The notes: generated by a model not told the origin, from the sequence alone. A DNA stretch of 25,490 nt from Syntrophomonadaceae bacterium (GCA_007126465.1 SLBE01000046.1:1-25490); one strand, 5' to 3'. Positions 3,866 to 24,180 are shown, numbered from the stretch's first letter. Translations and numbers: made by a program.

Positions 3866-3932
3866 ATAGTTTTAGGCTCTTAAAGAAAACTTCTTAGAAG
3901 CCGTAAACTTTAAAAAGAGGGTTCTGTAGAAA

Positions 3933-4766: not shown

Positions 4767-4768
4767 TT

Positions 4769-5500: not shown

Positions 5501-5529
5501 CTATAACCAGTGAAACAGGAGGTTTGTCT

Positions 5530-6870: not shown

Positions 6871-6978
6871 TTACTTAAACATCAAATGCGCAATTTATGT
6901 TGATATGTTACTCCTTGAGCCTGCTTAAGAAAACTGCGCAGTTATAATATATCTATGGTAGCAATGAATATTTGGCGA

Positions 6979-6987
6979 TGTTATAAT
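6979..6987 (+). promoter_or_regulatory. Putative extended -10 promoter upstream of glmS
   Basis: TG-T-TATAAT at 6979-6987. A second TATAAT lies at 6943-6948. No good -35 seen. Confidence 0.4.
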
Positions 6988-7036
6988 ACTTGAGGTTGCA
7001 GTTATTATTTCAGTAAATTTATGCGGGGGTCTGAAT

Positions 7037-8875: not shown

Positions 8876-8901
8876 GTCATATATAGTATTTATATTAGAG
8901 C

Positions 8902-8940
8902 ATACGGTATGTTTGTAACAATCAGACATGCCGTATTTGT
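8902..8940 (+). terminator. Likely intrinsic terminator after glmS
   Basis: 14-bp stem ATACGGTATGTTTG / CAGACATGCCGTAT (two G-U pairs), 7-nt loop, followed by a T-rich tract. Confidence 0.65.
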
Positions 8941-8979
8941 ATATGTATGCCATAAATAGTTAATTATACAAGTAAAAAC

Positions 8980-9008
8980 TTTACTTTAAGAAGGAAAGCA
9001 AGTATGAT
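8980..9008 (+). promoter_or_regulatory. Putative sigmaA promoter for Zn-ribbon hypothetical gene
   Basis: TTTACT (8980-8985), N17, TATGAT (9003-9008). Confidence 0.55.
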
Positions 9009-9081
9009 AATATAAAATTAAGTGCATTAGGTGTACATATGTGCAGGTAAAGGTAGTCATTACCAGGTGGCGGGTGATTAT

Positions 9082-9741
9082 ATGCATACCCATAAAGTTG
9101 ATACAGAGTTAGTTTGTTTCGTTTGTAATAAACTTACAATACACAATATTGAGTATGCTGATAATCGCATGAATAATATTACCTGCAGCACCTGTGGTGT
9201 AAAATATGAACTGGTTATCGAAGTTAGCATTTCTTATCATACTGAAAATATACTGAAACGCATTCTGACTAAACCTCACCGAATTTTAGATGAAACTCAC
9301 ACTGATTTAATTGAATTTATTTATTCTTTGCCACTAAGGGTAGTATCGAAGCCATATAGGCTGGTAAATGAAATTATTGTAGAACCAGGTCAATCTACTG
9401 ATGAATCTAAGAAAAATGAAACAGATATTTTTTGCAGCTACTGTTCAGAGCCCACCTCGCATAGTATTTATTATTTTGACAATAGAATGCAATATTCGGT
9501 TTGCTCTCAATGTGGCTTGAAAATAGAGTTTCTTTGTCTGGTAGTTAAGTACAAGAACTATCCTGAAGAATTAATGCACCGAATTGTAACTAAACCTGAA
9601 CGGATTTTGAAAGAGTTACACAGCCAGCGTTCCAGCTTGTTATACTCCATTCCGATAAGGGTTGTTACTAAGCCTTATCGCCTCCTCAGGGAATTTGTTG
9701 CCAGGATGAAAAATACAACCTCAAACAAAAGCAATTTCTAA
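9082..9741 (+). CDS. Hypothetical protein with two tandem CxxC...CxxC Zn-ribbon + helical repeats
   Basis: Two internal repeats, each CxxC-N19-CxxC followed by RI.TKP.RI and Y-S-[LI]-P-[LI]-R-V-V-[ST]-K-P-Y-R-L. ORF opens at GTG 9031; ATG 9082 is the more likely start. Confidence 0.75.
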   Translation: MHTHKVDTELVCFVCNKLTIHNIEYADNRMNNITCSTCGVKYELVIEVSISYHTENILKRILTKPHRILDETHTDLIEFIYSLPLRVVSKPYRLVNEIIVEPGQSTDESKKNETDIFCSYCSEPTSHSIYYFDNRMQYSVCSQCGLKIEFLCLVVKYKNYPEELMHRIVTKPERILKELHSQRSSLLYSIPIRVVTKPYRLLREFVARMKNTTSNKSNF

Positions 9742-9879
9742 TTAAGCTAACACAAACTTTTCCCCTATTTTCTAATAAGGTAACTAAAACAGGGATCTGT
9801 AAAGCATGATCGCTGCTTTAGAATGTGCAGAAAATGGGGCAATTGGATAATTGAGACATTAAAAGACAGTTTTTTTGTA

Positions 9880-9908
9880 TTGACAAAACAGGCAAGAGTA
9901 ATTATACT
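9880..9908 (+). promoter_or_regulatory. Near-consensus sigmaA promoter of the PTS/corrinoid/dehydrogenase operon
   Basis: TTGACA (9880-9885), N17, TATACT (9903-9908). Confidence 0.8.
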
Positions 9909-9932
9909 GAAAATGAACTAATGATTGACATG

Positions 9933-9946
9933 TGAACAGATGTGCA
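9933..9946 (+). promoter_or_regulatory. Candidate SorC/DeoR-family operator
   Basis: Imperfect palindrome TGAACA-GA-TGTGCA just downstream of the promoter. A SorC-family regulator is encoded in the operon. Confidence 0.55.
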
Positions 9947-10062
9947 ATATCAGATTATTTAGGTTTCTTCCATTCGTTGAACTTTAATAGTGTCATAACA
10001 GCTTAGCATGTGAGGGTTAAGATAAAGCTTTTAACTTTAACAAATTGAGGTGACTTCTTGTT

Positions 10063-10737
10063 ATGATGTTAGCTGATTTGAGGCAGGCAGTAATAGAAAC
10101 TGCCCGTAAGATGAAAGAATACGGGTTAGTTGAGCTGGCTGGGGGAACTGTTTGTGCTGTTGATAAAGAAACCTCACTGGTTGCAATTACTCCAAGTGGA
10201 TTGGAGTATGACAATATGCAGCCGGAAGATGTTTGTCTGGTAGATTATGATTTAAGGTTAGTGGATGGCAGGCTAAAGCCTTCAATTGCTTCAGATATGT
10301 TTACAGAAATAATTAAAGCCCGCCCTGATGTCGGCGCAGTAATACATACTCACTCAAGTTATGCAACTGCATTCGCCTCGTTAAATCGAGAAATCCCTGT
10401 TATTACCACTACGCAAGCTAACCTGGTTGGAGGAACAGTACCTGTAGTAAGGCCGCTCCACCCAGGACCACATACAAAAGAATACTTAGCGAATATTGTA
10501 AAAACTCTCGGAAACGGTAAAGCTGTTAATCTAATGTGTCATGGCCCTATAGTCGTAGGTGATGATCTGGATGACTGTTTAGCTGTTGCTGTAACCATAG
10601 AAAGCACAGCAGCGATAGCAATTAGGGCTGCAGCTCTTGGCAATCCAGTCTGTTTGAACCAGGATGATACAAAGCTTGCCTATGACTATTGCCGTAGAGC
10701 TGTAGGGCAAAAAAAACATAATGAAAGGGGGGAATAA
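10063..10737 (+). CDS. Class II aldolase/adducin-family protein (FucA/AraD-like), atypical active site
   Basis: AITPSG, KPS, RPDVGAVIHTHS (metal HxH) and xHG third His. PSIA in place of PSSE/PSSD. Confidence 0.88.
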   Translation: MMLADLRQAVIETARKMKEYGLVELAGGTVCAVDKETSLVAITPSGLEYDNMQPEDVCLVDYDLRLVDGRLKPSIASDMFTEIIKARPDVGAVIHTHSSYATAFASLNREIPVITTTQANLVGGTVPVVRPLHPGPHTKEYLANIVKTLGNGKAVNLMCHGPIVVGDDLDDCLAVAVTIESTAAIAIRAAALGNPVCLNQDDTKLAYDYCRRAVGQKKHNERGE

Positions 10738-10738
10738 T

Positions 10739-11047
10739 GTGGACCAAAAGTTAATTCTTGTTGTTTGCGGGGCAGGTATTAATACCTCCACTATGGCAGG
10801 GGAATTCATATCGGACGAAATCAGTAAGCGCAAACTTAAAAACGTTAAGGTAAAAACTGTACTTGTTAATGATTTGCCTCGCTATAAAGGTCAAAAGGAT
10901 ATGGCAATTGTTTATATGACTAAGGTTGACACTGATATGGGTGTTCCATCTTTCCAGGGTATGAACTTTCTGATTGGCACGCGTGATACAAAGCTTGAGC
11001 TGTTCGATAAAATCCTTGAATCTTTGGATGTTGAGCAGCAGGGTTAA
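10739..11047 (+). CDS. PTS galactitol-family EIIB component
   Basis: ILVVCGAGINTSTM with phosphorylatable Cys and GatB-like C-terminal F..G. GTG 10739 follows a G-rich RBS (ORF opens at 10721). Confidence 0.85.
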   Translation: MDQKLILVVCGAGINTSTMAGEFISDEISKRKLKNVKVKTVLVNDLPRYKGQKDMAIVYMTKVDTDMGVPSFQGMNFLIGTRDTKLELFDKILESLDVEQQG

Positions 11048-11086
11048 AAAAGAAGCAGTTAAAAAAATGTTTAGGAGGTTTTATCG

Positions 11087-12364
11087 ATGAGTGGAATTTA
11101 TTCTACAATTGTTGCTGGAGTTGATTGGTTTGTAGCCCTTGGTCCTTCCGTAATGATTGCAATTGTTCTCACAGTTCTTGGTACTGCTTTTGGGGCAGGT
11201 TTTTCAAAAAGCCTTCGTGGTGGGATTATTACCGGAGTTGGGTTAGCCGGTCTATTCCTGGTGGTTGACTTAATTGTTGCTGCCCTCTTACCAGCTATTA
11301 ACGCGATGGCTGAAAACTTTAACCTGCAGTTAAGGCTGGTTGATGTGGGCTGGGCTGATGCAGGGATTGCCTGGGGGTGGCCCGGGGTCGCCGGTGTTAT
11401 GCTGGGCATCATTGCTGTAAATATCATAATGGTCCTACTTAAATTAACAAAAACACTGTGGACAGATGTTTGGAGTTACTGGCATGGCCAGGTTTGCGGG
11501 GCATTTGTTTGGGTTGTAACCGGAAGCGTTACACTTGGCATTATCGCTGCAATAATTTACCTGGTTATCGGTAGCCTGTTTTCAGATATTACAGCAAAGC
11601 GCTACCAGGAGTATAATGATATGCCAGGGATTGGAGTGCCCTGCGGCCCTACTGTGCTGGCCAGTGTTTTTGCCATCCCGGTTAGCGCAGCCCTCAATAA
11701 AATTCCTGGAATTAACAAGTTAAACGCTTCACCTGAATCAATCAAGGAAAGGTTCGGGGTTTTCGGGGAAGTATCAGTTATGGGTGCAATAATTGGCCTT
11801 ATTATTGGATTACTTGCAGGCTATGGTGTCGCCGGTGCTTTGGTCCTGTCTATGCAGGTTGCTGCTATCATGCTTATTTTGCCCCGGATGGTCTCAATTA
11901 TTGCGGAAGGTTTAATACCGATCACTATGAAAGTTGCCGAATTCGTGCGTGAACGTTTTAAAGATCGCGAACTGCATGTTGGGGTTGACTGTGCTGTGTT
12001 GTTGGGGCATTCTTCGGTGATGGCTTCAGCTTTAATTCTTTTCCCCCTATCTATTCTGCTGGCTGCAGCACTACCCGGTAATGGAATGCTGCCCATAGCA
12101 AGTCTTGCGCTTATTCCATTTCTGGCTGGAGCGGTTGTACCTTTTACCAGGGGAAATGTTATTCACACCGTGATTATTGTCCTGCTGCTTCTTATTCCTT
12201 ACCTGTATGCAGCTACTAACATGTCTCCTGTTCACACTGAAACCTATGCTCAACTTGGAATGTTTACTGAGGAAATTGAAGGTGGAGCGAGGTTTGCCAG
12301 CTGGGACATGGGTGGAGATCCAATTAGCTGGATAATTAACCAGATCTTCAGGCTTTTTAGCTAA
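11087..12364 (+). CDS. PTS galactitol-family EIIC permease (GatC-like)
   Basis: 425 aa polytopic protein with LGPSVM, DVGW..AGIAWG, TKTLWTDVWSYWH, MLILPRMVSIIAEGLIP and LHVGVDCAVLLGH motifs similar to GatC. Confidence 0.9.
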   Translation: MSGIYSTIVAGVDWFVALGPSVMIAIVLTVLGTAFGAGFSKSLRGGIITGVGLAGLFLVVDLIVAALLPAINAMAENFNLQLRLVDVGWADAGIAWGWPGVAGVMLGIIAVNIIMVLLKLTKTLWTDVWSYWHGQVCGAFVWVVTGSVTLGIIAAIIYLVIGSLFSDITAKRYQEYNDMPGIGVPCGPTVLASVFAIPVSAALNKIPGINKLNASPESIKERFGVFGEVSVMGAIIGLIIGLLAGYGVAGALVLSMQVAAIMLILPRMVSIIAEGLIPITMKVAEFVRERFKDRELHVGVDCAVLLGHSSVMASALILFPLSILLAAALPGNGMLPIASLALIPFLAGAVVPFTRGNVIHTVIIVLLLLIPYLYAATNMSPVHTETYAQLGMFTEEIEGGARFASWDMGGDPISWIINQIFRLFS

Positions 12365-12428
12365 AAGGTAATGTAATATGAGTGTATTCTTCCAGGGTTC
12401 AACCTGGAAGAATACACCTTGAATAAGG

Positions 12429-12902
12429 TTGGTGAAGGATAAGGTGAAATATTTTAACGAAGACTTAATTATGACAGGCCTTCCAGCTGAAAGCAGTGAT
12501 GAAGTGATCAACAGCTTAGTAGGCAAAATGGCAGACAAAGGGTATGTTACCCCTGATTATGCTTTGGAAGTAACCGAAAGGGAAAAAAAACACCCAACCG
12601 GCCTTCCAACCCAGGAGGTTAAAGTAGCAATTCCACATGCCGGTGCAGATAACGTTATAAAGCCTGGTGTTGCTTTAGCCGTCCTAAAAAAACCGGTAGT
12701 ATTTTGCAACATGGAAAACCCTGACCAGGATTTGGATGTCAGTATTGTATTTTTACTGGCCAATAAAGATAGCGGGGATCAATTGAAAGATTTGCAGTCG
12801 CTGACAGGTCTTTTTGCTGATCCATCAATTCTTCAGCGTGTTGTTAAATCCGGCAGTGCAAAAGAAATTGCCGAATTACTTAACCAAAGATTATCTAACT
12901 AG
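12429..12902 (+). CDS. PTS EIIA component (mannitol/fructose-type EIIA_2 fold, GatA-like)
   Basis: REKKHPTGLP..VAIPH (phospho-His), F.NMENP, VFLLA. Exact start uncertain. Confidence 0.9.
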   Translation: MVKDKVKYFNEDLIMTGLPAESSDEVINSLVGKMADKGYVTPDYALEVTEREKKHPTGLPTQEVKVAIPHAGADNVIKPGVALAVLKKPVVFCNMENPDQDLDVSIVFLLANKDSGDQLKDLQSLTGLFADPSILQRVVKSGSAKEIAELLNQRLSN

Positions 12903-12919
12903 GTAAAGGATGTGGAGAA

Positions 12920-14059
12920 GTGTTAACCCCAAGAGAAAGAGTTTTAACAGCTCTTAAACACGAGGAACCTGATCGGGTTCCACTCGGGCTAGGGGCAAGT
13001 GGAGCCAGTGTTACAGATGATGTATACTTTAAATTGAAAGATTACTTTGGTATCGAGGGCGATGTTGAACCATTTCGTTCCGGCCATGGAGATAACATAT
13101 ATGACCCAAGGGTTTTTGATTGTTTAGGGGTGGACTTCAGGCATGTTTTTTTAAGATCTTCTTTAGACTTTAAGCCTCCTGTAAACGAGGATGGAAGCCT
13201 TGTTAATGAATGGGGCGTTGCTGTAAAAAAATATGGCCGTTTCTATGAGTGGGTTAGTCACCCTCTAGCAGAAGCAGATTTATCTGATCTTGATAATTAC
13301 AAGTGGCCTAAGCCATATACGGGGCAACGTCAACGTGGCTTGCAGGATACTGTTCAGGAATACTATCAAAAGAGCGATTTTGCTATAGCTTCTAGGTCAC
13401 CATCTCGAGGTTTTTTTGACCTGGGTATCCAGTTAAGGGGATTTGAGCGCTTTATGACCGATATGGTTCTTGACAAAAAATTCACTCATAAATTTATGGG
13501 TAAATTACTGGAAACTATTATCGGGTTTTATGATGTGCTCTTAGAACAAGCCGGCCCATATATACATATTGTTGAAACCCAGGATGATTACGGGCATCAA
13601 AACTCGCTGTTTTTCTCGCCGGCATTATTCCGTGAAATGATTAAGCCATACCGGGCAGAACTAAATGCTTTTATAAAGAAAAAAGCACCGCAAGCTTCAA
13701 TTTTTATTCACACATGTGGCGCTGTTAGTGAGCTAATCGAGGATTTAATTGATTGTGGTGTTGATGTTGTTAATCCTGTGCAGCCATTGGCTAAAGGTAT
13801 GGAAACGAAAAAACTAAAAGAAAGATTTGGCGGAAAAATTGTGTTTCATGGTGGGATTGATTTACAGAAAGCCCTGGCCGGATCAAAAGAAGATGTTGAG
13901 ATAGAAGTTAAAACCAGGCTTCGAGACCTGGCACCCGGCGGAGGTTATATTCTTTCCCCTGCCAATGTTGTTCAAGATGACGTGCCAGTTGAGAATATAG
14001 TCCTGTTGTTTGACCTGGCCAGGAAGTATGGTCAATACCCTATAGATATACCTGAATAA
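12920..14059 (+). CDS. Uroporphyrinogen-decarboxylase-fold protein, probable corrinoid-dependent methyltransferase (MtaA/CmuA-like)
   Basis: TPRERVLTAL.HEEPDRVP, DDYG.Q..LFFSP..FREMIKPY, HTCG (HxC), GGIDLQ, GGGYILSPAN. Lacks the HemE RQAGRY motif. A corrinoid protein gene is nearby. Confidence 0.8.
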   Translation: MLTPRERVLTALKHEEPDRVPLGLGASGASVTDDVYFKLKDYFGIEGDVEPFRSGHGDNIYDPRVFDCLGVDFRHVFLRSSLDFKPPVNEDGSLVNEWGVAVKKYGRFYEWVSHPLAEADLSDLDNYKWPKPYTGQRQRGLQDTVQEYYQKSDFAIASRSPSRGFFDLGIQLRGFERFMTDMVLDKKFTHKFMGKLLETIIGFYDVLLEQAGPYIHIVETQDDYGHQNSLFFSPALFREMIKPYRAELNAFIKKKAPQASIFIHTCGAVSELIEDLIDCGVDVVNPVQPLAKGMETKKLKERFGGKIVFHGGIDLQKALAGSKEDVEIEVKTRLRDLAPGGGYILSPANVVQDDVPVENIVLLFDLARKYGQYPIDIPE

Positions 14060-14356
14060 GGGGTGTAATTATGAAAAGGGTAACTGTGGCCGGAGGTTCA
14101 TGCGGCTGCTCCAGCCTGCGGCGTGCATCAGAAAAAATTGATCAATATTGTCGGTATAAAGGTATTGAAGTCAAAGTTTCTGTGCATAACTTATGGCAGT
14201 CTGTACACTTAGATCCCAGGGCGGACCTGGTCATACAAATGGTTCCGTTCTTTGAAGGGTTAAGTTGCCCTGTCTTAGATGGCCGTCCCTTTATTAAAGG
14301 CGACGGCGAAGACAACCTGTTACATGAGGTTGCTAAGTTGCTGGCATGAAATACCT
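13981..14356 (+). repeat. Tandem duplication, copy 1 (3' end of URO-D-fold gene + EIIB-like gene)
   Basis: Sequence from cgtgccagttgagaatatag... recurs 403 nt downstream. Confidence 0.95.
14071..14349 (+). CDS. GatB-like PTS EIIB paralog 1 with displaced Cys
   Basis: MKRVTVAGGSCGCSS...CPVLDGRPFIKGDGE aligns to the GatB fold (MKRKIIVACGG...PLVHGMPFISGIG), but has Gly at the catalytic Cys position. Confidence 0.7.
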   Translation: MKRVTVAGGSCGCSSLRRASEKIDQYCRYKGIEVKVSVHNLWQSVHLDPRADLVIQMVPFFEGLSCPVLDGRPFIKGDGEDNLLHEVAKLLA

Positions 14357-14383
14357 TGCAAGTTTAAATTAGTAACCGAACTG

Positions 14384-14756
14384 CGTGCCAGTTGAGAATA
14401 TAGTCCTGTTGTTTGATTTGGCCAGGAAGTATGGTCAATACCCTATAGATATACCTGAATAAGGGGTGTAATTATGAAAAGGGTAATTGTAGCCGGAGGT
14501 TCATGCGGTTCCAGCATGCAGCGTGCATCAGAAAGAATTGATCAATATTGTCAATATAAAGGTATTGAAGTCAAAGTTTCTGTGCATAACTTATGGCATT
14601 CTGTGCACTTAGATTCCAGGGCGGATCTGGTCATACAAATGTTTCCGTTCTTTGAAGAGTTAAACTGCCCCGTTTTAGATGGTCGCCCCTTTATTAAAGG
14701 CGACGGCGAAGAAGATCTGTTGCATGAAGTTGCTGAATTGCTGGCATAAAGTACCT
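14384..14756 (+). repeat. Tandem duplication, copy 2
   Basis: Hand alignment gives about 90% nt identity to 13981-14356, with one 3-nt deletion. Includes the last 25 codons plus stop of the URO-D-fold gene. Confidence 0.95.
14474..14749 (+). CDS. GatB-like PTS EIIB paralog 2 with displaced Cys
   Basis: Paralog of 14071-14349 (13 substitutions + 1 indel by hand count). N-terminus MKRVIVAGGSCGSS. Confidence 0.7.
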   Translation: MKRVIVAGGSCGSSMQRASERIDQYCQYKGIEVKVSVHNLWHSVHLDSRADLVIQMFPFFEELNCPVLDGRPFIKGDGEEDLLHEVAELLA

Positions 14757-14803
14757 ATGATTTGCTTTAACAAACGATGTAATTATATGTGAGGTGTTTA
14801 GAA

Positions 14804-15439
14804 ATGAAACTACTGTCTGAAATTGGCGATAAAATGATAGAAGGTAATGTTGAAGAGCTGATAGACCTGATTAATAAAGCAGAAGCTGAAGGAATTGATC
14901 AAAAGACGATTATTAATGATGGTTTAATTGCTGCCATGCTAAGCCTTGGTGAAAAATTCAAACTCAATGAAGTGTTTATACCTGATGTACTGGTTGCAGC
15001 GGCAGCAATGAAAGAAGCGATTAATCATTTAGGTTTCGATAATATTTCTGATACAGGTTCACCAAAAGGAGTAATTGTAATTGGAACGGTTCGGCATGAC
15101 ATGCATGATATTGGGAAAAACCTGGTTGCTTTACTTATGAACAGCAATGGTTTTCATGTTCATGATCTCGGTGTAGACGTGTCACCGGACAAATTCGTGG
15201 AAGCGGTAAAAGATTACAGTCCTGATATCCTGGCCCTCTCTGCTCTTTTAACAACAACACTGCCTGAAATGAGTGAGGTAATAAAAGCTTTGGGTAATGC
15301 AGGAGTTAGAAAATCTACACGGGTTTTGGTTGGCGGTGCGCCGGTAACTGAAGAATATGCCGATTCGATCGGTGCAGATGGTTATGCGCCTGATGCAACC
15401 TCTGCAGTAACTAAATCTTTAGAGATGATTGATAGCTAA
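14804..15439 (+). CDS. Corrinoid (cobalamin-binding) methyltransferase protein, MtaC/MttC-like
   Basis: N-terminal cap domain (GLIAAM..LGEKF...EVFIPDVL), DxHxxG motif DMHDIGKNLV, SALLTTT, GGAP, IGADGYAPDA. ATG 14804 follows GAGGTG. Confidence 0.93.
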   Translation: MKLLSEIGDKMIEGNVEELIDLINKAEAEGIDQKTIINDGLIAAMLSLGEKFKLNEVFIPDVLVAAAAMKEAINHLGFDNISDTGSPKGVIVIGTVRHDMHDIGKNLVALLMNSNGFHVHDLGVDVSPDKFVEAVKDYSPDILALSALLTTTLPEMSEVIKALGNAGVRKSTRVLVGGAPVTEEYADSIGADGYAPDATSAVTKSLEMIDS

Positions 15440-15498
15440 TACTGCTGCAATGAAGTGTTATCTCAATGGTTGCTGGTCAGAAAGGATTGTGAACAAAC

Positions 15499-16464
15499 AT
15501 GGTTACAAGAAAGCATAACCAGAGATTGTTATCGAAAATTGCTCACATGTATTATGAGCAAGGCTTAAGCCAGCAAATGATTGCAGAAAAATTGAGGACA
15601 TCAAGGCCAACTATAAGCAGAATGCTAGATCAAGCTCGTAAAATGGGCATAGTTAAAATATCTATCCAATCATTTAATGATCGAATAGCTAGTCTTGAAA
15701 GTGAATTAGAAAGCAAATTTTCTCTTAACGAAGTAGCTGTTATTGCAAATGATTCTATGAATAAAGCAGATCAGAAAAAGGCGCTTGGGGCAGTTGCTGC
15801 AGATATATTACAGCGAATTGTTAAAGGATCTGATGTTGTTGGGATTTCATGGGGAACAAGTTTGCGAGAAGTTATTAACGGACTTAAGCCAACACATATT
15901 CCCGGGTTAATAGCAGTTCCACTGGTTGGTGGAATGGGTCAGGATATACGCTATGAGATTCATTCAAACAGCCTTGTAGTAGATTTTTCCAGAAAACTTG
16001 GTTGTCACAGCTGGGTTTTACATGCACCGGCTATTGTTGAGAGAGAAAATTTGAAAGATGCCATCCTGGGCGAGTCTGAAAGTGGAGAAATTATGGAGCA
16101 GGCAAAAAAGGCTAATATTGGCATGGTGGGATTAGGAGCACTTAATGAATCCTCAACTATGATTCAAACCGGGTTCTTCTCTATCGATGATTTTAAAGAA
16201 ATCAGGGAAAAAGGCGCAATCGGCGAAGTCTGCTCATTTTTCTTTGATCGTAATGGTCAAGCTTGTGATATTGATATCAATAAGAGGGTTATCGGGGTAG
16301 GCCCTTATGATTTGAAAAATATTGAAACAGTCATTGCAGTTGTAGCCGGTGACAAAAAGGAAGAGGCTCTTCATGCGGCTCTAAGAGGCCAGTTTATAAA
16401 TATTTTGATTACAGATGAATTGACAGCTGAAAAGGTGCTTTTAATTGAAAGTGCTACCAGGTAG
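15499..16464 (+). CDS. SorC/DeoR-family sugar-phosphate-binding transcriptional regulator
   Basis: N-terminal HTH (IAHMYYEQGLSQQMIAEKLRTSRPTISRML..AR..GIVKI), GISWGTSL, VPLVGG, IGMVGLG and LITDE motifs. Confidence 0.93.
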   Translation: MVTRKHNQRLLSKIAHMYYEQGLSQQMIAEKLRTSRPTISRMLDQARKMGIVKISIQSFNDRIASLESELESKFSLNEVAVIANDSMNKADQKKALGAVAADILQRIVKGSDVVGISWGTSLREVINGLKPTHIPGLIAVPLVGGMGQDIRYEIHSNSLVVDFSRKLGCHSWVLHAPAIVERENLKDAILGESESGEIMEQAKKANIGMVGLGALNESSTMIQTGFFSIDDFKEIREKGAIGEVCSFFFDRNGQACDIDINKRVIGVGPYDLKNIETVIAVVAGDKKEEALHAALRGQFINILITDELTAEKVLLIESATR

Positions 16465-16520
16465 TTGGTTAACCTAAACCTTAATAATGCAAACTATCTT
16501 TATTATATGGGGGGCGTGAA

Positions 16521-17483
16521 ATGAAGCTATCGAAAAAATTAAAGCTAAGAATGTTAGAGCAAATGCTGCTAACTCGCTATTTTGAAGAAAAAGTTGATGA
16601 GCTTTTTGCCAAGGGATTGATCCATGGAACCACTCATCTTTCAATCGGAGAAGAAGCGATGGCGGCAGGACCGGTAAACGCCTTAAAAGCAGATGACTTT
16701 ATGGCCATTACTCACCGTGGGCACGGTTCCTGTATAGCTAAGGGTGCTGATATTAATATCATGATGGCTGAGTTAATGGGCAAAGAAACAGGTTATTGTA
16801 AAGGTAAAGGCGGTTCCATTCATGTTGCTAACCTGGAAGAAGGTAATCTTGGGGCAAACGGTATAGTGGGTGGTGGAATCCCTATTGCTACTGGAGCCGC
16901 ACTTGCACAGAAAATGCAAAACACCGGTAAAATTGTCCTTTGCTTTTTTGGTGATGGTGCATCTAATGAAGGAACATTTCATGAATCACTAAATATGGCC
17001 TCTATCTGGCAGTTGCCTATTGTTTACGTTTGCGTTAATAACATGTATGGGATGTCTACGTGCATTGACGATGTTTGCCCTACAAATAACATTTCTGATC
17101 GTGCATCTGCTTACCAGATGGAAGGTATTACAATCGATGGTAACGATGTTCTTGAGATGTTTGAGGTTACGAATAATGCTGTTATAAAAGCACGTAAGGG
17201 TCAGGGGCCTACGTTGATTGAAGGCTTAACTTACAGGTGGAAAGGTCATTCGAAAAGTGATGCTAACTTGTATCGGACCAGGGAAGAGATAGAAGAGTGG
17301 AAAAAGAAATGCCCAATCAAGCGCTTCCAGACCTATTTAATCGAACAAAAAATCATGTCTGAGGAAGAGATTAAAAAAATGGAAGAATCATCCCTTGAAA
17401 CAATTGAGAGGGCTGTGGAGTTTGCTGAGCAAAGTCCTTATCCCAGCTTAGATGCACTGGAAGAAGACCTCTATGCTTATTAA
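16521..17483 (+). CDS. TPP-dependent 2-oxoacid/acetoin dehydrogenase-like E1 alpha subunit
   Basis: THRGHG, GKGGSIH, TPP-binding GDGASNEG...NN, YRWKGHSKSD. Substrate not determinable from sequence. Confidence 0.92.
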   Translation: MKLSKKLKLRMLEQMLLTRYFEEKVDELFAKGLIHGTTHLSIGEEAMAAGPVNALKADDFMAITHRGHGSCIAKGADINIMMAELMGKETGYCKGKGGSIHVANLEEGNLGANGIVGGGIPIATGAALAQKMQNTGKIVLCFFGDGASNEGTFHESLNMASIWQLPIVYVCVNNMYGMSTCIDDVCPTNNISDRASAYQMEGITIDGNDVLEMFEVTNNAVIKARKGQGPTLIEGLTYRWKGHSKSDANLYRTREEIEEWKKKCPIKRFQTYLIEQKIMSEEEIKKMEESSLETIERAVEFAEQSPYPSLDALEEDLYAY

Positions 17484-17525
17484 TTGGAGTATTTAATATC
17501 TACCATAGACGGAGAGTGATGTTAC

Positions 17526-18506
17526 ATGGAAGAGATAACCTATGGCCAGGCGGTTCGTGATGCTATGAGGGAAGAACTGCAGCGTGATGAAAATGTTTTT
17601 TTGATGGGTGAAGATATAGGGGTCTACGGAGGAGCTTTCGGCATTACCTTTGGTATGATTGATGAGTTTGGACCTGACCGTGTTAGAGATACACCTATAT
17701 CCGAGGCAGCTATAGTAGGAGCTGGTGTCGGGGCAGCGATGGTTGGTATGCGCCCTATCGTTGAGATTATGTTTAGCGACTTCCTTACCCTGGCCAGTGA
17801 TCAAATTATGAATCAAGCTGCAAAAATCCATTATATGCTTGGTGGCAAAGCTAAGGTGCCCCTGGTTGTAAGAACACCAGGTGGTTCCGGAACAGGTGCA
17901 GCTGCTCAGCATTCTCAAAGCCTTGAAGCACTATTTGCCCATATACCGGGCCTTAAAGTAGTTATGCCATCTAGCCCATATGATGTTAAAGGTCTTTTGA
18001 AGACAGCAATTCGTGACGACAACCCTGTTGTTTTTTTTGAACACAAACTATTGTATTCAAAAAAAGGAGAGGTTCCGGATACAGACTATACTGTTCCCTT
18101 CGGCGAAGCAGAGATAAAACGGTCTGGATCAGATATCACAGTTTTTGCAACATCAATCATGGTACACAGGGCTCTCGAAGCAGCGGAGCAGCTGGCAAAT
18201 GAAAATATTAGTGTCGAAGTAATAGATCCAAAAACACTTGTGCCACTGGATACTGAAACCATTGTTAAATCGGTTATAAAGACCGGCCGCCTGATGATTG
18301 TTCAGGAAGCCTGTAAAAGAGGCGGATTTGCCTCTGAAGTTGTAGCAGAGGTTGTTGAAAGTGAAGCTTTTGGTTATTTAGATGCACCGATTACAAGGGT
18401 CGCCGGTAAAAATATTCCCATACCATATTCAAAAAAACTAGAAGCGGCAGCTGTTCCACAGGTAGAAGATATAGTTAAAGCAGTAAAAGAAGAGCTCTTA
18501 CAGTAG
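17526..18506 (+). CDS. TPP-dependent dehydrogenase E1 beta subunit
   Basis: [50 protein letters not shown]. Confidence 0.93.
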
Positions 18507-18518
18507 GGAGGCAGTTTG

Positions 18519-19817
18519 ATGGCAGTTGAAATACTGATGCCCAAGATGGGCATGACAATGGAAGAAGGAACAATTCTTAAGTGGGTTAAACAAATTGGCG
18601 ATGAAATTGTCAAAGGGGAAGTTGTCCTCGAGATTCAGACTGATAAGGTAAAAATGGATGTAGAGGCACCAGCTGATGGAGTGTTATTAAAAATTGTCGC
18701 AGCTGAAGGTTCCGTGGTACCGGTTAATACCCCTATTGCATATATAGGAGAAGCAGGAGAAACTGTAGCTGAAGAAGAGCAACCTGCCAGTGTAGCTGAT
18801 AGCTCATCAGCAGAAACTGCAGAAGAAGTAAAAACTCATGGCCCTGTTAAAGCAACTTCCAGCGTTGATAGTGAAAAATGTAAAGCAACGCCTGCAGCAA
18901 AAAGGATGGCTGCAGAAAAAGGAATTGATTTGCAAAATATAACTCCTGGATCGACTGATGGAATGATTAGGGTAAAAGATCTGGACGCGGTTAAAGCCAC
19001 CCCACTGGCCCAGAAGATTGCTCATGATCAGGGTATAGATCTCAGTGCTGTTAAAGGTAGTGGTGTTCATGGAAAAATCACCAAAGAAGATCTTCTTTCA
19101 GATTCTGCCATAAGAAGTAGTGATGATGAACAAAGCAGTGTAACGCCGCTGGCTGGTTTACGCAAAGTAATTGCTGAACGAATGAGTCTTTCATGGCATG
19201 AAGCTCCTCATGCATTTATCAGCCTTGAGGTGGATATGACTGCAATGGCAAATCTAAGGTCAGAAATACTAAAAGATCTGGAGGAAAAGACCGGGAACAA
19301 AGTTTCATATAACCACCTGTTAATCAAGGTAGTCGCTCGAGCATTAAGAGATAACCCGGCAGTGAATGCCAGGTTCATTGATAATGGAATAGATTTTTCT
19401 GAAGATGTAAATATTGGTGTTGCTGTTGCTGCAGAGGAAGGCTTAATTGTGCCTGTACTGCATAAAGCGGACAAATTAAACATAGAAGAGGTTGTTCTTA
19501 ATACTAATGAACTAATTGAGAAGGCTCGCAATGGTGAACTTGTATTAAAAGAGTTGGAAGGCGGGACTTTTACAATCAGTAATCTTGGTATGTTCGGTAT
19601 TACCATGTTTGGACCGATTTTGAATCCCCCGGAAGTGGGGATCCTCGGTGCAGGGAAAATAATTGACAGTCCGGTAGTGGAAAATGGAAATGTCGTGGTT
19701 AAGCCGATAATGACTTTGTCTTTATCATTTGATCACCGGGCCCTGGATGGAGCACAGGCGTCCCTCTTTTTATCGCGTGTCAGGGATTTAATGGAATCAC
19801 CGGCGAAGTTACTATAA
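18519..19817 (+). CDS. Dihydrolipoamide acyltransferase E2 (one lipoyl domain, two peripheral-subunit-binding domains)
   Basis: Lipoyl motif EIQTDKV, two ATP.A.+.A...GIDL repeats, GGTFTISNLG, catalytic DHRALDG. Confidence 0.93.
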   Translation: MAVEILMPKMGMTMEEGTILKWVKQIGDEIVKGEVVLEIQTDKVKMDVEAPADGVLLKIVAAEGSVVPVNTPIAYIGEAGETVAEEEQPASVADSSSAETAEEVKTHGPVKATSSVDSEKCKATPAAKRMAAEKGIDLQNITPGSTDGMIRVKDLDAVKATPLAQKIAHDQGIDLSAVKGSGVHGKITKEDLLSDSAIRSSDDEQSSVTPLAGLRKVIAERMSLSWHEAPHAFISLEVDMTAMANLRSEILKDLEEKTGNKVSYNHLLIKVVARALRDNPAVNARFIDNGIDFSEDVNIGVAVAAEEGLIVPVLHKADKLNIEEVVLNTNELIEKARNGELVLKELEGGTFTISNLGMFGITMFGPILNPPEVGILGAGKIIDSPVVENGNVVVKPIMTLSLSFDHRALDGAQASLFLSRVRDLMESPAKLL

Positions 19818-19860
19818 AAGAGTAATGGAAATACACAGAGCAATGGAGGACACAGATCAG

Positions 19861-21246
19861 ATGGATTATGATATTTTGGTACTGGGCGGCGGAATAGGTG
19901 GCTATGTTGCTGCAATCAGGGCTGCGAAAGGTGGGGCGAAAGTTGCCCTGGTAGAAAAAAACCATATTGGTGGAACCTGTCTTAATTATGGCTGCATTCC
20001 AACCAAGTCCCTGATACGCAGTGCAGAAGTACTAGATACAGTAAAAAATGCAAGTGATTTTGGTGTAAAAGCTACCGGGGCAGAGCTAGACCTGGAATCG
20101 GTAATTAAACGTAAAGACAATATTGTAAAAATGTTGACTGAAGGTGTTGAAGGCCTGTTAAATGCCAACCAGATTACCATTTATAACAGCATGGGTAATG
20201 TTAAGGATGCCAGGACAGTTGAAGTAAAAGATAGCAGCGGAAAGAGCTTAGACCTTACTACTAATAAATTAATTATTGCAACAGGTTCAGTAACAACAAT
20301 TCCGAATATTCCTGGCGTGGATTTGCCAGGTGTTATAACCAGCAAGGAAGTGTTGAATATAACAGATCTGCCTGAAGAGGTTTGTATCGTTGGCGGAGGA
20401 GTAATAGGATTAGAGTTTGCTTACATACTAAATGCTTTCGGGGCAAAGGTTACCGTTTTGGAATTATTGCCCGAAATATTACCTAAAGCTGAACGTGAGC
20501 TGGTCAATTATTTGCTGGATTCTTTTCGGGAAAAAGGCATTAGCATTCTTACCAAGGCCCAGGTTAATGCTATTGAAGAGAGTGAACCCGGTATGAATGT
20601 TATGTTTTACCACAACGATGAAGAAAAAACGCTTCAGTCCGGTTTAGTTTTAATGGCGGTGGGCCGTGAACCCAACCTTGCAGGTCTGGATGCTCTTAAT
20701 TTAAAAAGAAATTCAAGTAAGGGGATAATCGTAAATAGCTCCATGGAAACTTCCTTGCCTGGAGTTTATGCTATCGGAGATGTAACAGGTGGTGTCCAAC
20801 TGGCACATGTTGCAACTGCTCAGGGTATAGTAGCTGCAGAAAATGCTCTTGGTGAAGAAGCGAAATTTAATAGCAACAGCATCCCTTATTGCATTTATAG
20901 CAAACCTGAAATGGCCTGGGTAGGCTTAACGGAAGAAGAAGCAAAAGAAAAGTATGGCCGGATAAAAGTAGGCCGGTTTCCTTTTACCGGTAGTGGTAAG
21001 GCCATGGTTTATGGTGATACCTCCGGCCTGGTTAAGATGATTATAGATGAGAAATATGGTGAAATTGTCGGTCTACATCTAATTGGGCCCGAAGCGACCA
21101 ATATGATTGCCGAAGGTGTTTTGGCCAGAATGTTGGAAGCAACAGTGATTGAGCTGGCAGCTACGATTCATCCCCATCCAACGTTGTCTGAAGTTTTAAT
21201 GGAAGCTGCTCATATGACGCTTGACCAGGGCATTCATTATATTTAG
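19861..21246 (+). CDS. lpdA: Dihydrolipoyl dehydrogenase E3
   Basis: GGGIGG FAD site, redox disulfide GGTCLNYGCIPTK, GGGVIG NAD site, HPHPTLSE. ATG 19861 follows GGAGG (ORF opens at 19825). Confidence 0.95.
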   Translation: MDYDILVLGGGIGGYVAAIRAAKGGAKVALVEKNHIGGTCLNYGCIPTKSLIRSAEVLDTVKNASDFGVKATGAELDLESVIKRKDNIVKMLTEGVEGLLNANQITIYNSMGNVKDARTVEVKDSSGKSLDLTTNKLIIATGSVTTIPNIPGVDLPGVITSKEVLNITDLPEEVCIVGGGVIGLEFAYILNAFGAKVTVLELLPEILPKAERELVNYLLDSFREKGISILTKAQVNAIEESEPGMNVMFYHNDEEKTLQSGLVLMAVGREPNLAGLDALNLKRNSSKGIIVNSSMETSLPGVYAIGDVTGGVQLAHVATAQGIVAAENALGEEAKFNSNSIPYCIYSKPEMAWVGLTEEEAKEKYGRIKVGRFPFTGSGKAMVYGDTSGLVKMIIDEKYGEIVGLHLIGPEATNMIAEGVLARMLEATVIELAATIHPHPTLSEVLMEAAHMTLDQGIHYI

Positions 21247-21289
21247 CAGTTGAAACAAATATTATTGACCCTTGAAAGGATGACAGAAA

Positions 21290-21574
21290 ATGCAACAAAA
21301 TTCTGTAGAAGTACTTATTACGAATAAATCTGGGCTTCACGCAAGGCCCGCATCTCTTTTTGTACAGGAAGCAAATAAGTATAAATCCGAAATTGAGATA
21401 AATTGCAAAGACAAAACAGTTAATGCAAAAAGTATACTTAGTATACTTGGCTTGGGTGCCAATAAAGGAAGCACAATCGTTATTAGTGCTGAAGGTGAAG
21501 ATGCAGGAGTTGCTTTAAGTGGCCTAAAAGAATTTTTGGAAAAAGAATTACCCAGGGTGGATGGTGCGGAATGA
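21290..21574 (+). CDS. ptsH: Phosphocarrier protein HPr
   Basis: GLHARPA (His15) and NAKSILSIL (Ser46) motifs. Confidence 0.93.
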   Translation: MQQNSVEVLITNKSGLHARPASLFVQEANKYKSEIEINCKDKTVNAKSILSILGLGANKGSTIVISAEGEDAGVALSGLKEFLEKELPRVDGAE

Positions 21575-23301
21575 TTACTCTTAATGGAATTGGTGCATCG
21601 CCGGGGATAGTTGTTGGCAAAGCAGCTTTGATCAGGGATAGGGAAATCGAGCTGACACATGAGAAAATTATGCCAGAGGAGACAGCTCAGGAAATTGAGC
21701 GCTTCGATGCTGCCATTACAAAAGCTAAAGAGGAGATAAAGGTAATTAGGGATCAAGCTGAGCAGAATATTGGCAGTGAAGAAGCAGCTGTCTTTACTGC
21801 ACACTTGATGATATTAGATGATCCTGAATTGGTGCAGGGTGTTGTATCAAAAATCAAGAATGAGCTGATCAGTGCGGAAAATGCTGTTAATGAGGTTGTT
21901 AAAAATTATATAGAAATGCTGTCAGCTTTAGATGATGAATATATAAAAGCCAGGGTTGCCGACATCGAAGATATCGGTCAGCGTTTGCTATTGTTGCTTA
22001 CTGGTACCGAGAAAACTAACGTTGAATTAGACAAAGAAACAATCTTAATAGCGAAAGATCTGAGTCCATCAGACACTGCACAATTAAACGCTGATTTAAT
22101 CCTTGCTTTTGCAACGCAGTCCGGTTCACGTTCTTCCCATACAGCTATTCTTGCCCGATGCCTTGGAATTCCTGCCGCGGTAGGTCTTGGAGAAAAGCTA
22201 TTGGAGGTAGTGACTGAGGGTGACATAATTATTGTTGATGGCAATGATGGAGTTGTCATAGTAGATCCTGACCAAACGGTGCTTAAAGATTACCAAAGAA
22301 AAATTGAGATGGAAGAAAAAGAAAAGTTGCGTCTTACGGAATATAAGCATAAGTCAGCGACTACTGCAGATGGGCTGAGAATAAAAATAATGGGAAATAT
22401 TGGTGCAGTTAATGAAGCAGATGCTGTTTTGAAAAATGGAGGAGAAGGTTCAGGGCTATTTCGGACAGAGTTTCTTTACATGGAAAATGAAGAATCTCTA
22501 CCTTCGGAAGAACAACAGTACCTGTCATATAAAGCGGTGGCTGAGAAGATGAATGGTAAAGAAGTGGTAATTCGCACACTTGATATTGGTGGTGATAAAG
22601 AGCTTGCATCACTCAATCTGGCATGTGAAGAAAACCCTTTTCTTGGTTACAGAGCTATAAGAATATGTTTAGACCGGGAAGATATTTTTAAGCCTCAACT
22701 TAGGGCTATTTTAAGAGCGAGTGTTTTTGGTGATTTAAAAGTAATGTTTCCTATGATCGCAGGCCTTGAGGAATTAAGAAAGGCCCTGTATTTCTTGAAT
22801 GAAGCCAAGCAAGAATTGAAAAATGAAGAAATTCCATTCAAACATGATATTGAAGTTGGGATTATGATCGAGGTGCCTTCTGCTGCTTTAATGGCAGACA
22901 CACTGGCTAAAGAGGTTGACTTTTTTAGTATTGGCACCAATGATCTCGTTCAGTATACACTGGCTGCAGATCGAAATAATGAGAAAGTGTCAGCAGCATA
23001 TAACCATTATCATCCCGCTGTTTTAAAGCTGATAAAAATTGTTGCAGATGCTGCTCATAATAATGGTATATGGGTGGGGATGTGCGGTGAAGCATCCGGA
23101 GATGAGCTTTTGCTGCCACTTTGGGTTAGCTTTCGTTTTGATGAATTGAGTATGAGTTCTGTTTCTATCCTTAAAGCAAAAGAAATTATTAGCTTATGGA
23201 GTGCTAAAGAAGCAGAACTGCTATCAGAAAAAGTATTAACTGCAGATACAGCTACCGAAGTTAAACAGCTTTTAGCATCAGCTTCAAAAGATAACTCATA
23301 A
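21571..23301 (+). CDS. ptsI: PTS Enzyme I (PEP-protein phosphotransferase)
   Basis: GIGASPG, SHTAILAR (phospho-His), GLFRTEFLY, RTLDIGGDK, ENPFLGYRAIR, FSIGTNDL, GMCGE. Confidence 0.96.
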   Translation: MITLNGIGASPGIVVGKAALIRDREIELTHEKIMPEETAQEIERFDAAITKAKEEIKVIRDQAEQNIGSEEAAVFTAHLMILDDPELVQGVVSKIKNELISAENAVNEVVKNYIEMLSALDDEYIKARVADIEDIGQRLLLLLTGTEKTNVELDKETILIAKDLSPSDTAQLNADLILAFATQSGSRSSHTAILARCLGIPAAVGLGEKLLEVVTEGDIIIVDGNDGVVIVDPDQTVLKDYQRKIEMEEKEKLRLTEYKHKSATTADGLRIKIMGNIGAVNEADAVLKNGGEGSGLFRTEFLYMENEESLPSEEQQYLSYKAVAEKMNGKEVVIRTLDIGGDKELASLNLACEENPFLGYRAIRICLDREDIFKPQLRAILRASVFGDLKVMFPMIAGLEELRKALYFLNEAKQELKNEEIPFKHDIEVGIMIEVPSAALMADTLAKEVDFFSIGTNDLVQYTLAADRNNEKVSAAYNHYHPAVLKLIKIVADAAHNNGIWVGMCGEASGDELLLPLWVSFRFDELSMSSVSILKAKEIISLWSAKEAELLSEKVLTADTATEVKQLLASASKDNS

Positions 23302-23421
23302 CCATCATTTTGTTACATATTATTGGTAGCCATCAAAGCTCAAGTTAGCTTCTATATTATTTGATTTTTAATCCCGTAGTAAAATAAGCACTTTTCAAAC
23401 TAGCAAATGGAGGCACAGTTA

Positions 23422-24102
23422 ATGCCAGAAAAGGTTGCATATGTTTTAGATTTTGATGGAACTATAACAACAAAGGATATTTCAAAAGAGCTGGCAATAC
23501 ATTATAATGAGGATCAGTTTTGGATAATTCACAATGCCTATAAAAAGGGTGAGCTAGGAATGCGTGACTGGTTAGAGCAGTCAGCAGCGTTACTGCCATC
23601 TAACTATGACCAGTTAATTACAACAGCTTTGAATTATGCTACTGTTAGACCCGGATTAACAGATTTTTTGGATTATGCTGCTTCTCAATCAAGGCCGGTG
23701 GTAATTGCCAGTGATGGATTTGGGTTTTATATTGAACCAATTTTAGAATCTGCTGGCATGTTAGATAAAATTACTGGAATCTATAGAAATGATCTTGCGT
23801 TAGATGATCATTGTCTGCCCTTCGTGCGATATCTACATGGTCACAATAATTGCAAGATATGCGGTAATTGTAAGGCTAACCATGTTAATGATTTCGTAAA
23901 TAGCGGATTCCAGGTTGTATTTGTTGGAGACGGGACTAATGATATATACGGTGCTTCAGTTGCGAATTATATCGCAGCCAGGGATCGCCTTGCAGATCTT
24001 TGCAGCATTAGAGAGTTGAATTATCATTCCTGGGAAGATTATTTCGATCTGATCAAGATTAGCAATCTATTATTTTCGCAGGGATTTCAAGGTGCAAGTT
24101 GA
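23422..24102 (+). CDS. HAD-superfamily phosphatase, MtnX-like
   Basis: DFDGTIT nucleophile motif, IASDG, C..CGNCK, VGDGTND. ATG 23422 follows GGAGG (ORF opens at 23407). Confidence 0.85.
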   Translation: MPEKVAYVLDFDGTITTKDISKELAIHYNEDQFWIIHNAYKKGELGMRDWLEQSAALLPSNYDQLITTALNYATVRPGLTDFLDYAASQSRPVVIASDGFGFYIEPILESAGMLDKITGIYRNDLALDDHCLPFVRYLHGHNNCKICGNCKANHVNDFVNSGFQVVFVGDGTNDIYGASVANYIAARDRLADLCSIRELNYHSWEDYFDLIKISNLLFSQGFQGAS

Positions 24103-24180
24103 ATATTTAATTATTAACAATTAAAAACCTTGTATTGCGAAACTCTTAAGCAGATATGCAAGAGATTAAAGGAGCTAATT

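Follow-up and report, generated by a model that had tools for sequence, protein, structure and literature searches.

A GHSKSD-type E1 subfamily of lipoamide-dependent dehydrogenase complexes in a sugar phosphotransferase island of a Syntrophomonadaceae bacterium

We analysed a 25,490-nucleotide stretch of DNA from a Syntrophomonadaceae bacterium (GCA_007126465.1, SLBE01000046.1:1-25490), hereafter called the window, and in particular the four genes at positions 16,521 to 21,246, which code for the E1 alpha (E1a), E1 beta (E1b), E2, and E3 components of a dehydrogenase complex. The four open reading frames (ORFs) are intact, lie on one strand, and are each matched over their full length by Pfam or NCBIfam models. 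They are located in a 15.3-kb island on the plus strand (8876-24129), between glmS and glnS, which contains all parts of the cassette, including a phosphotransferase system (PTS), a sugar-phosphate-binding regulator, and the general PTS proteins HPr and Enzyme I (EI). The features of the island are listed in Table 1.

Table 1. The dehydrogenase genes and the other features of the island (positions counted from the first nucleotide of the window).
Feature	Position	Strand	Remarks
E1 alpha, GHSKSD subfamily	16521-17483	+	320 aa; E1_dh 2.8e-86; SorC gene 56 nt upstream
E1 beta	17526-18506	+	326 aa; Transket_pyr and Transketolase_C
E2 acyltransferase	18516-19817	+	433 aa; lipoyl domain, two E3-binding domains (Pfam E3_binding, 2 stretches), catalytic domain
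E3 dihydrolipoyl dehydrogenase	19825-21246	+	473 aa; TIGR01350, 537 bits, above cut-off (408.8)
Zinc-ribbon ORF	9031-9741	+	Tandem duplicate module, CxxC...CxxC then TKPxR...KPYR; RefSeq family 'bh protein'
Best sigma70-like promoter match	9880-9908	+	TTGACA-17-TATACT, upstream of the aldolase-like gene; consensus match only
Class II aldolase / L-ribulose-5-P 4-epimerase-like protein	10063-10737	+	Pfam Aldolase_II 1.6e-42
Galactitol-family PTS, IIB	10721-11047	+	Pfam PTS_IIB
Galactitol-family PTS, IIC	11087-12364	+	Pfam EIIC-GAT
Galactitol-family PTS, IIA	12429-12902	+	Pfam PTS_EIIA_2
URO-D-fold protein	12920-14059	+	
EIIB-like small paralogue	14071-14349	+	
EIIB-like small paralogue	14474-14749	+	
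Corrinoid protein	14789-15439	+	
SorC/DeoR-type sugar-phosphate-binding regulator	15499-16464	+	Pfam Sugar-bind 4e-71
HPr	21290-21574	+	43 nt downstream of E3; 4-nt overlap with EI
Enzyme I	21571-23301	+	
HAD-IB (MtnX-like) phosphatase	23407-24102	+	Last island gene; TIGR01489, 82.8, above cut-off (81.55)

The E1a protein contains the motifs HGTTHLSIGEE (residues 35-45) and GHSKSD (residues 242-247), and its thiamine pyrophosphate (TPP) motif GDG-x26-NN is kept. In the case of E2, the lipoyl lysine (TDKV) and the DHRALDG motif are conserved, and E3 has retained both the CLNYGC disulfide and the His-Glu pair. The hallmarks of a 2-oxoacid/acetoin dehydrogenase-type multienzyme complex were thus found in E1, E2, and E3 alike. 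As judged from their sequences, the four genes encode a complete lipoamide-dependent complex composed of a TPP-dependent E1 alpha/beta, a lipoyl E2, and an FAD-dependent E3. With the pyruvate dehydrogenase (PDH) equivalog models, E1a scored below the cut-off in both cases (379.9 against 393.85 for TIGR03182 and 252.2 against 411.35 for TIGR03181), and in the protein atlas its homologues carry generic PDH and acetoin labels only. The E1b protein is 61-70% identical to E1b of other GHSKSD loci. The first-pass annotation of this DNA had placed an E1a/E1b/E2/E3 set between the SorC gene and ptsH/ptsI, which is borne out by the intact reading frames and the Pfam/NCBIfam matches; the two E1a motifs are present as it quoted them, and the two tandem peripheral-subunit-binding domains that it described in E2 correspond to the two E3_binding stretches given by Pfam. 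It was also right that the window contains no lipoate ligase. An LplA-like ligase lies on contig C203 (G000; L004:1-2897), clustered with LipS1, LipS2, and a second Lpd-like (dihydrolipoyl dehydrogenase-like) gene. The LipS1/LipS2 pair corresponds to a recently described alternative lipoyl synthase and could serve the island E2.

The comparison with homologues revealed a characteristic set of residues in E1a. All of its best 120 homologues carry GHSKSD. Among 80 species-representative loci, this loop was always paired with GT[TMC]HL, and the other loops (GHFEGD, GHHEGD, GHTEGD, GHWTGD, AHSM[SA]D, and GHVVGE) were paired with GF.HL. Signature positions were taken to be those with a conservation of at least 90% within the clade whose residue is shared by no more than 15% of the AcoA-like and PDH-like relatives. 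At these positions the clade has T37, where Phe is found elsewhere, N109 (in GNLGANG), where the others have Ile, Met or Phe, and K245, which is replaced by Glu or Met elsewhere; they are hydrophobic-to-polar or -basic changes specific to the clade. The three signature residues are invariant across all gene contexts, residue 245 being Lys or Arg wherever the enzyme is sugar-linked and Thr in a nested GHWTGD group without PTS. By alignment, Thr37, Asn109, and Lys245 correspond to Phe61, Phe131, and Met265 of human PDHA1. Lys245 directly follows the catalytic His-Ser of the phosphorylation loop, just as human Met265 follows His263 and Ser264 in loop A. In human E1 structures, phosphorylation loop A walls the substrate channel.

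Phylogenetic analysis showed that the GHS[KR]SD rows form one clade, with a Shimodaira-Hasegawa-like approximate likelihood ratio (SH-aLRT) support of 99 in the first tree and of 96, with 41 of 42 rows, in the second. PdhA paralogues of the same Bacillales genomes (PHTMAG loop) form a distant clade, BkdAA (PHSSDD) also stands apart, and AcoA-type paralogues (GH[FHY]EGD) fall outside the GHSKSD clade. Both GHSKSD-type and AcoR-linked GHFEGD-type paralogues coexist in five genomes (G087, G209, G242, G274, and G094), and in Planococcus, Alkalicoccobacillus, and Alkalihalobacillus the GHSKSD complex is an extra one beside canonical PdhA and BkdAA. The E1a of the window combines G-H-S-K/R-S-D, G-T-x-H-L, and G-N-L-G-A-N-G with a position inside the clade and a sugar context. 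This allowed us to conclude that, by sequence, it represents a distinct, uncharacterised E1 subfamily, whose marks are the G-H-S-K/R-S-D loop, a Thr where GF.HL has Phe, and the Asn of G-N-L-G-A-N-G. The first-pass annotation had doubted that the complex is a PDH or a classical acetoin dehydrogenase and had suggested an E1a phylogeny as a check. Its view is supported by the separation of the clade from PdhA, BkdAA, and AcoA-type proteins (SH-aLRT 96-99), by the signature residues, and by the gene context in more than 140 loci, and the loop contrasts that it drew hold as well, the PDH-like relatives having [AG]HSM[SA]D and the AcoR-linked ones GHFEGD or GHHEGD.

The flanks of the E1 loci were annotated by ORF clustering, by Pfam and NCBIfam searches with representatives, and by tblastn. 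A sugar context, defined as the presence of SorC, PTS, HPr/EI, DXR-II or the zinc-ribbon protein within 10 kb, was found in 58 of 60 GHS[KR]SD loci and in none of the 81 loci with other loops (46 AcoA-type and 35 others). A sigma54 AcoR homologue accompanied 21 of the AcoA-type loci, none of the 35 others, and one GHS[KR]SD locus, that of Clostridioides difficile, where it is the regulator of the neighbouring PTS operon. The most frequent partner was a SorC homologue (44/60 within 10 kb, compared with 0/81). The other partners in the 60 loci were a glucitol-type PTS (26), a galactitol-type PTS (21), the zinc-ribbon protein (25), EI (18), HPr (15), an aldolase-like protein (6), and a DXR-II homologue in 26, a number inflated by the 37 loci that were gathered with DXR-II as the query. 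HPr or EI comes after E2 or E3 in many GHSKSD loci. At AcoA-type loci, Zn-dependent alcohol dehydrogenase (Zn-ADH) or short-chain dehydrogenase/reductase (SDR) genes are frequent; the island itself contains neither a sigma54 activator nor a butanediol dehydrogenase. In an independent metagenome set, which did not include the relatives P0004-P0011 (75-82% identical), 15 of 18 GHS[KR]SD loci of at least 5 kb had a sugar context, and the only sugar-linked exceptions belonged to the related GHS[AS]FD/GSTHL group.

The same linkage was observed on plasmids. On the Priestia plasmid, the 'bh protein', HPr, a glucitol PTS, and GutM lie on one side, and E1a, E1b, E2, lpdA, SorC, an MFS transporter, a SAF-domain oxidoreductase, and an FGGY kinase on the other. 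On a Rhizobium plasmid, genes for a PfkB kinase and a sugar ABC transporter are found beside those for SorC, a DXR-II-like oxidoreductase, the complex, and a class II fructose-bisphosphate aldolase. PTS, complex, and SorC are also linked on a Brevibacillus replicon; an Enterococcus plasmid has the contrasting AcoR-linked type. In the Rhizobium and Priestia versions, an ABC or MFS transporter together with a sugar kinase takes the place of the PTS, which points to a phosphorylated substrate.

Some related E1 groups were seen along the way. In one of them, with the loop GHWTGD or GHHVGD (L035, L055, L056, L241) and a position near or inside the GHSKSD clade, the E1 genes have an aldehyde dehydrogenase and an ADP-forming acyl-CoA synthetase as neighbours, and a PTS is absent; this resembles a route by which gut anaerobes would gain ATP from a non-phosphorylated ketol or diol. 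The GHS[AS]FD/GSTHL E1ab group (L064, L083, L317, L320, L322) is sugar-linked, with an FGGY kinase, a class II aldolase-like protein (AldII), a xylose-isomerase-like barrel, and SorC. No E2 homologue was detected beside it in the flanks scanned, and this group may act as a lyase or in a transketolase-like manner. An unusual pairing was noted in Acidobacteriota (L060-L089), in which genes for an AMP-binding ligase and for a phosphopantetheine carrier protein flank those of a PDH-like E1ab/E2 with an AHSM[SA]D loop.

The glmS and glnS genes are directly adjacent, with a gap of 0-390 bp, in four congeners without the insert (G004-G007), and among the same-genus genomes compared the insert is common to G002 only. 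The GC content is 0.34-0.43 within the island and about 0.47 upstream of it. E1a is present in one of seven other same-genus genomes and occurs sporadically across the family and order; congeners without the island have no E1 whatsoever. The cassette is a mobile island that has been inserted between glmS and glnS. Its PTS is the sole PTS found in the genome, and its HPr and EI are the only general PTS proteins there. The host genome carries Dxs and DXR-I, as well as several POR-type oxidoreductases and a PFL-like enzyme, so that pyruvate oxidation in the host would be independent of the island complex. Taken as a whole, the explanation that we narrowly favour is a horizontally acquired, dispensable, self-contained PTS catabolic island with the dehydrogenase complex as its terminal step.

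A member of the subfamily occurs in C. difficile, in an operon consisting of a sugar-binding regulator, E1a, E1b, E2, and lpdA, whose E1a is 57% identical to that of the window. All three signatures (GHSKSD, GTTHL, and GNLGANG) are present in the C. difficile acoA product, a SorC/DeoR-type sugar-binding regulator is encoded directly upstream, and a PTS operon is adjacent. The operon was equated with acoRABCL (CD0035-CD0039) by its organisation and not by locus tag. By sequence characters, then, the C. difficile "aco" operon is a GHSKSD-subfamily member. It shares with the island the subfamily, the type of regulator upstream, and the nearby PTS, and it differs from it in being minimal: its five genes include no HPr/EI, no aldolase-like gene, and no B12 module. 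According to a preprint (bioRxiv 10.1101/2023.07.28.551048), the aco genes are co-transcribed with the DeoR-type regulator and show no sigma54 dependence; acetoin and pyruvate repress rather than induce them, an acoA mutant consumes acetoin like the wild type, and the sole known phenotype is repression of sporulation.

With regard to the substrate, we consider it probable, from sequence and context, that the complex acts on a phosphorylated alpha-hydroxy-ketone of sugar origin, which it would split into an acyl-CoA and an aldose phosphate. The PTS would import and phosphorylate a sugar or polyol, and the SorC-type regulator would sense the sugar phosphate and control the cassette. Here, the aldolase/epimerase-like protein and the URO-D/corrinoid pair would convert the sugar to the phosphorylated alpha-hydroxy-ketone, a step that in most relatives would be performed by DXR-II or other polyol dehydrogenases. 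E1 would then cut the C2-C3 bond in the manner of acetoin dehydrogenase, the acyl group would pass to lipoyl-E2 and on to CoA, E3 would yield NADH, and the aldose phosphate would be released. That the signature residues stay invariant across contexts suggests that the substrates have a feature in common. In the PTS-less GHWTGD group, with its aldehyde dehydrogenase and ADP-forming acyl-CoA synthetase, the Lys has been lost, which fits a phosphorylated substrate for the Lys-bearing enzymes.

Among the substrates listed in the first-pass annotation, the frequent pairing with DXR-II points to 1-deoxy-D-xylulose 5-phosphate (DXP). DXP is a phosphorylated analogue of acetoin (CH3-CO-CHOH-R), and the change of hydrophobic channel residues to polar or basic ones fits a DXP-like substrate. 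The oxidoreductase found beside many of the complexes matches DXR-II of Brucella abortus (3UPY) with 380 bits at about 50% identity and keeps G121, E174, F178, K191, K193, T229, R320, Y322, and V351; the Rhizobium and Priestia copies have retained His250 as well. DXR-II homologues occur in 34 of 401 genomes sampled. Of the 32 close homologues, 16 are located no more than 9 kb from a GHS[KR]SD E1, and most of the others are accompanied by PTS, zinc-ribbon, EI or SorC genes. In many genomes, the complex is preceded by a sorbitol-type PTS together with DXR-II. Methylerythritol uptake via the sorbitol PTS in Salmonella is given in the title of Testa et al. 2004 (PMC305747). The distribution of DXR-II has been described as unexplained, as it occurs alongside DXR-I, in the mevalonate-only Chloroflexus, and in Finegoldia and Anaerococcus without other pathway genes (PMC3847144), and it is still called so in a 2026 review (PMC13001223). 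We found no methylerythritol catabolic pathway in the literature searched. In the DXR-II-linked route, methylerythritol would be phosphorylated to 2-C-methyl-D-erythritol 4-phosphate (MEP) by the PTS or a kinase, MEP would be converted to DXP by DXR-II running in reverse, and the complex would produce acetyl-CoA and glyceraldehyde 3-phosphate (GAP). Second DXR-II copies, located with zinc-ribbon, EI, and galactitol-type PTS genes and no E1, were also seen (L155-L157, L163, L164, L168, L172, L179) in genomes that hold the full operon.

DXP, or a close 1-deoxy-ketose phosphate, is our leading single candidate for the substrate in this window, put forward tentatively on sequence-derived grounds, and we rate it higher for the DXR-II-linked relatives. 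It is likewise possible, if short of probable, that the GHSKSD complexes are acetyl-transferring DXP dehydrogenases (DXP + CoA + NAD+ -> acetyl-CoA + glyceraldehyde-3-P + NADH), and, as a part of that same tentative proposal, the island might represent a variant with B12 dependence in which another sugar, possibly a methylated one, is channelled into DXP. The island is not an operon of the gut-PTS/DXR-II/E1 'methylerythritol' kind, as no DXR-II was found and its PTS is of the galactitol type, not the glucitol family. Several observations weigh against the assignment of a phosphorylated substrate or of DXP. DXR-II was found neither in the window nor in the 79%-complete genome, and the Thermovorax homologue has Ile at the position of His250. 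The search of E1b for a clade-specific cluster of basic residues (Arg/His) as a phosphate site gave nothing convincing. E1a narrowly misses the PDH equivalog cut-off, automatic annotation labels many members of the clade as PDH, and no characterised member of the subfamily was found in the literature searched. The Anaerolineae contexts hold UlaD/UlaE-like genes, which would predict a pentulose-5-phosphate and not a 1-deoxy sugar. Finally, related genomes are not independent samples, and the inflated DXR-II count mentioned above belongs here too.

An alternative is that the complex acts on another sugar-derived carbonyl compound, which may differ by context, for example an ordinary ketose phosphate like xylulose-5-P or L-ribulose-5-P (giving glycolyl-CoA), a non-phosphorylated deoxy-ketol, a diketone like phosphorylated 4,5-dihydroxy-2,3-pentanedione (phospho-DPD) or an aldehyde like lactaldehyde (giving lactyl-CoA). 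The partner enzymes vary widely (DXR-II, Zn-ADH/SDR, UlaD/UlaE-like, AldII, and FGGY kinases), which together with the lack of a DXR-II in the window speaks for it, as does a published regulon study in which a role with lactaldehyde was proposed for an acetoin-dehydrogenase-like enzyme of a Caldicellulosiruptor rhamnose cluster; the related GHS[AS]FD group is likewise sugar-linked. However, the signature residues do not change with the context, genes for handling glycolyl-CoA or lactyl-CoA are not recurrent in the clusters, and no complex of this kind is needed for pentulose-5-phosphates to enter the pentose phosphate pathway. We therefore regard this alternative as doubtful, though worth keeping in mind.

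We find it unlikely that the complex is a true pyruvate dehydrogenase carried with the PTS, which turns phosphoenolpyruvate into pyruvate with each transport event, SorC then coupling expression to a sugar phosphate in a CggR-like manner. The mitochondrial/alphaproteobacterial PDH E1 alpha (TIGR03182; human PDHA1, 1NI4/3EXE) is both the top NCBIfam match and the best solved structure (212 bits); E1a shares with it the H-S-x-S-D of the loop and the TPP motif. Moreover, no other E1 complex accompanies the GHSKSD one in this genome or in relatives from Thermovorax and Anaerolineales, and the C. difficile promoter answers to pyruvate, although by repression. On the other hand, E1a remains under the equivalog cut-off, the residues of the active-site channel in PDH-like relatives are replaced at all three positions, and the context is not that of central metabolism. 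The complex is surplus to PdhA and BkdAA in the three genera named above, plasmid-borne inside a sugar operon in rhizobia, and found in dedicated polyol operons with DXR-II; the host has its POR and PFL-like enzymes, and the island is dispensable. Even less can be said for a classical acetoin (or 2,3-butanediol) dehydrogenase system standing beside sugar genes by chance, which we consider very improbable. Some sources do label close homologues acetoin:DCPIP oxidoreductase, and the AcoABCL systems of Bacillus subtilis, Clostridium magnum, and Pelobacter carbinolicus have the same fold and E1 family, the same four-subunit architecture, and a chemistry like the one proposed here, in which CH3-CO-CH(OH)-R is cleaved with TPP and the acetyl group passes via lipoamide to CoA. 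Nevertheless, they form a clade of their own with the GHFEGD loop and hydrophobic residues where the island E1a has Thr and Asn, and their neighbours are sigma54/AcoR and butanediol dehydrogenase, both lacking in the island, instead of SorC with PTS, kinase or DXR-II genes. The coexistence of AcoR-linked paralogues with the GHSKSD type in five genomes, and the C. difficile member, which shows neither acetoin induction nor a role in acetoin consumption, also argue against it.

The cleavage of a phosphorylated alpha-hydroxy-ketone was also compared with other known systems. DXS and DXR-II (DRL, Brucella abortus, 3UPL/3UPY) catalyse the first two steps of the MEP pathway, and the proposed route would run both reactions backwards; DXR-II homologues with the substrate-anchoring residues adjoin many GHSKSD complexes. 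However, the proposed cleavage would be oxidative and lipoamide-linked, with acetyl-CoA and GAP as products, and so not a reversal of DXS, and the window lacks a detectable DXR-II. Split transketolases, such as that of the Listeria pentitol cluster, have separate PP and Pyr TPP subunits encoded in a galactitol/ascorbate-family PTS operon and cleave a ketose phosphate. Transketolase hands the C2 unit to an aldose acceptor; the island differs in having E2 and E3, which imply oxidation to an acyl-CoA. The type of machine is known; for the subfamily with its signature and regulation, and for the class of substrate that it is likely to use, we found no description in the literature searched.

The remaining parts of the island were also examined. 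The zinc-ribbon ORF has no Pfam or NCBIfam match; its family follows the pattern CxxC-x17-20-CxxC, then R[IV]xTKPxR...SLPxRVxxKPYR. In 25 loci from several phyla, a single-module homologue is the neighbour of a GHSKSD complex or of DXR-II (for example L017:8790-9137 and L118:8497-8826), and the association of the 'bh protein' with GHSKSD complexes and, even without E1, with DXR-II extends over at least five phyla. The protein may serve as an accessory or regulatory subunit. For the class II aldolase-like protein, which resembles AraD/UlaF, every NCBIfam equivalog scored under its cut-off; its homologues adjoin GHSKSD E1 in L028, L030, L219, L221, and L246 and DXR-II in L182, and the L028 locus, from a Clostridia metagenome-assembled genome, repeats the architecture with PTS, AldII, complex, and HPr plus zinc-ribbon. 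TIGR00827 gave the galactitol-family PTS 371 bits, below its cut-off of 542. The 64-nt IIC-IIA gap contains a hairpin (12380-12417) with a perfect 15-bp stem and a loop of 6-8 nt, GTGTATTCTTCCAGG...CCTGGAAGAATACAC, which could be an intra-operon RNA hairpin. The top NCBIfam match of the SorC regulator is DeoR of B. subtilis, at 257 bits and below the cut-off of 420. A 12-bp SorC/DeoR operator palindrome of another genome is absent from the island, where its sole one-mismatch match lies inside E1a and is at chance level, and no shared operator emerged from the intergenic regions compared. Promoter-like sites in the region were not more numerous than expected from shuffled sequence, and terminator-like sites were also at chance. 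At the position of the HAD-IB phosphatase, Anaerolineae loci have an ARMT1-like (damage-control) phosphatase, e.g., L045:15280-16131; the phosphatase encoded downstream of EI, with which the cassette ends, may provide a safety valve should sugar phosphate accumulate. Outside the island, the window holds a LigB-family/AMMECR1/radical-SAM triad and a cdaA-ybbR-glmM-glmS block (1345-8875), which appear ordinary and conserved and have no relation to it.

If the GHSKSD type is a separate enzyme, thousands of genes auto-annotated as pyruvate or acetoin dehydrogenase E1 would have another, sugar-derived substrate, in lineages that include Bacillota, Chloroflexota, Alphaproteobacteria, Actinomycetota, Spirochaetota, Caldisericota, and C. 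difficile, and the three-residue signature would provide a simple rule for their re-annotation. Should the substrate be DXP, the complex would define a new catabolic pathway for methylerythritol and deoxyxylulose, a missing catabolic exit from MEP-pathway intermediates, would explain the occurrence of DXR-II in bacteria that have DXR-I, the mevalonate pathway only or no isoprenoid pathway genes, and would offer a biochemical starting point for the puzzling aco phenotype of C. difficile.

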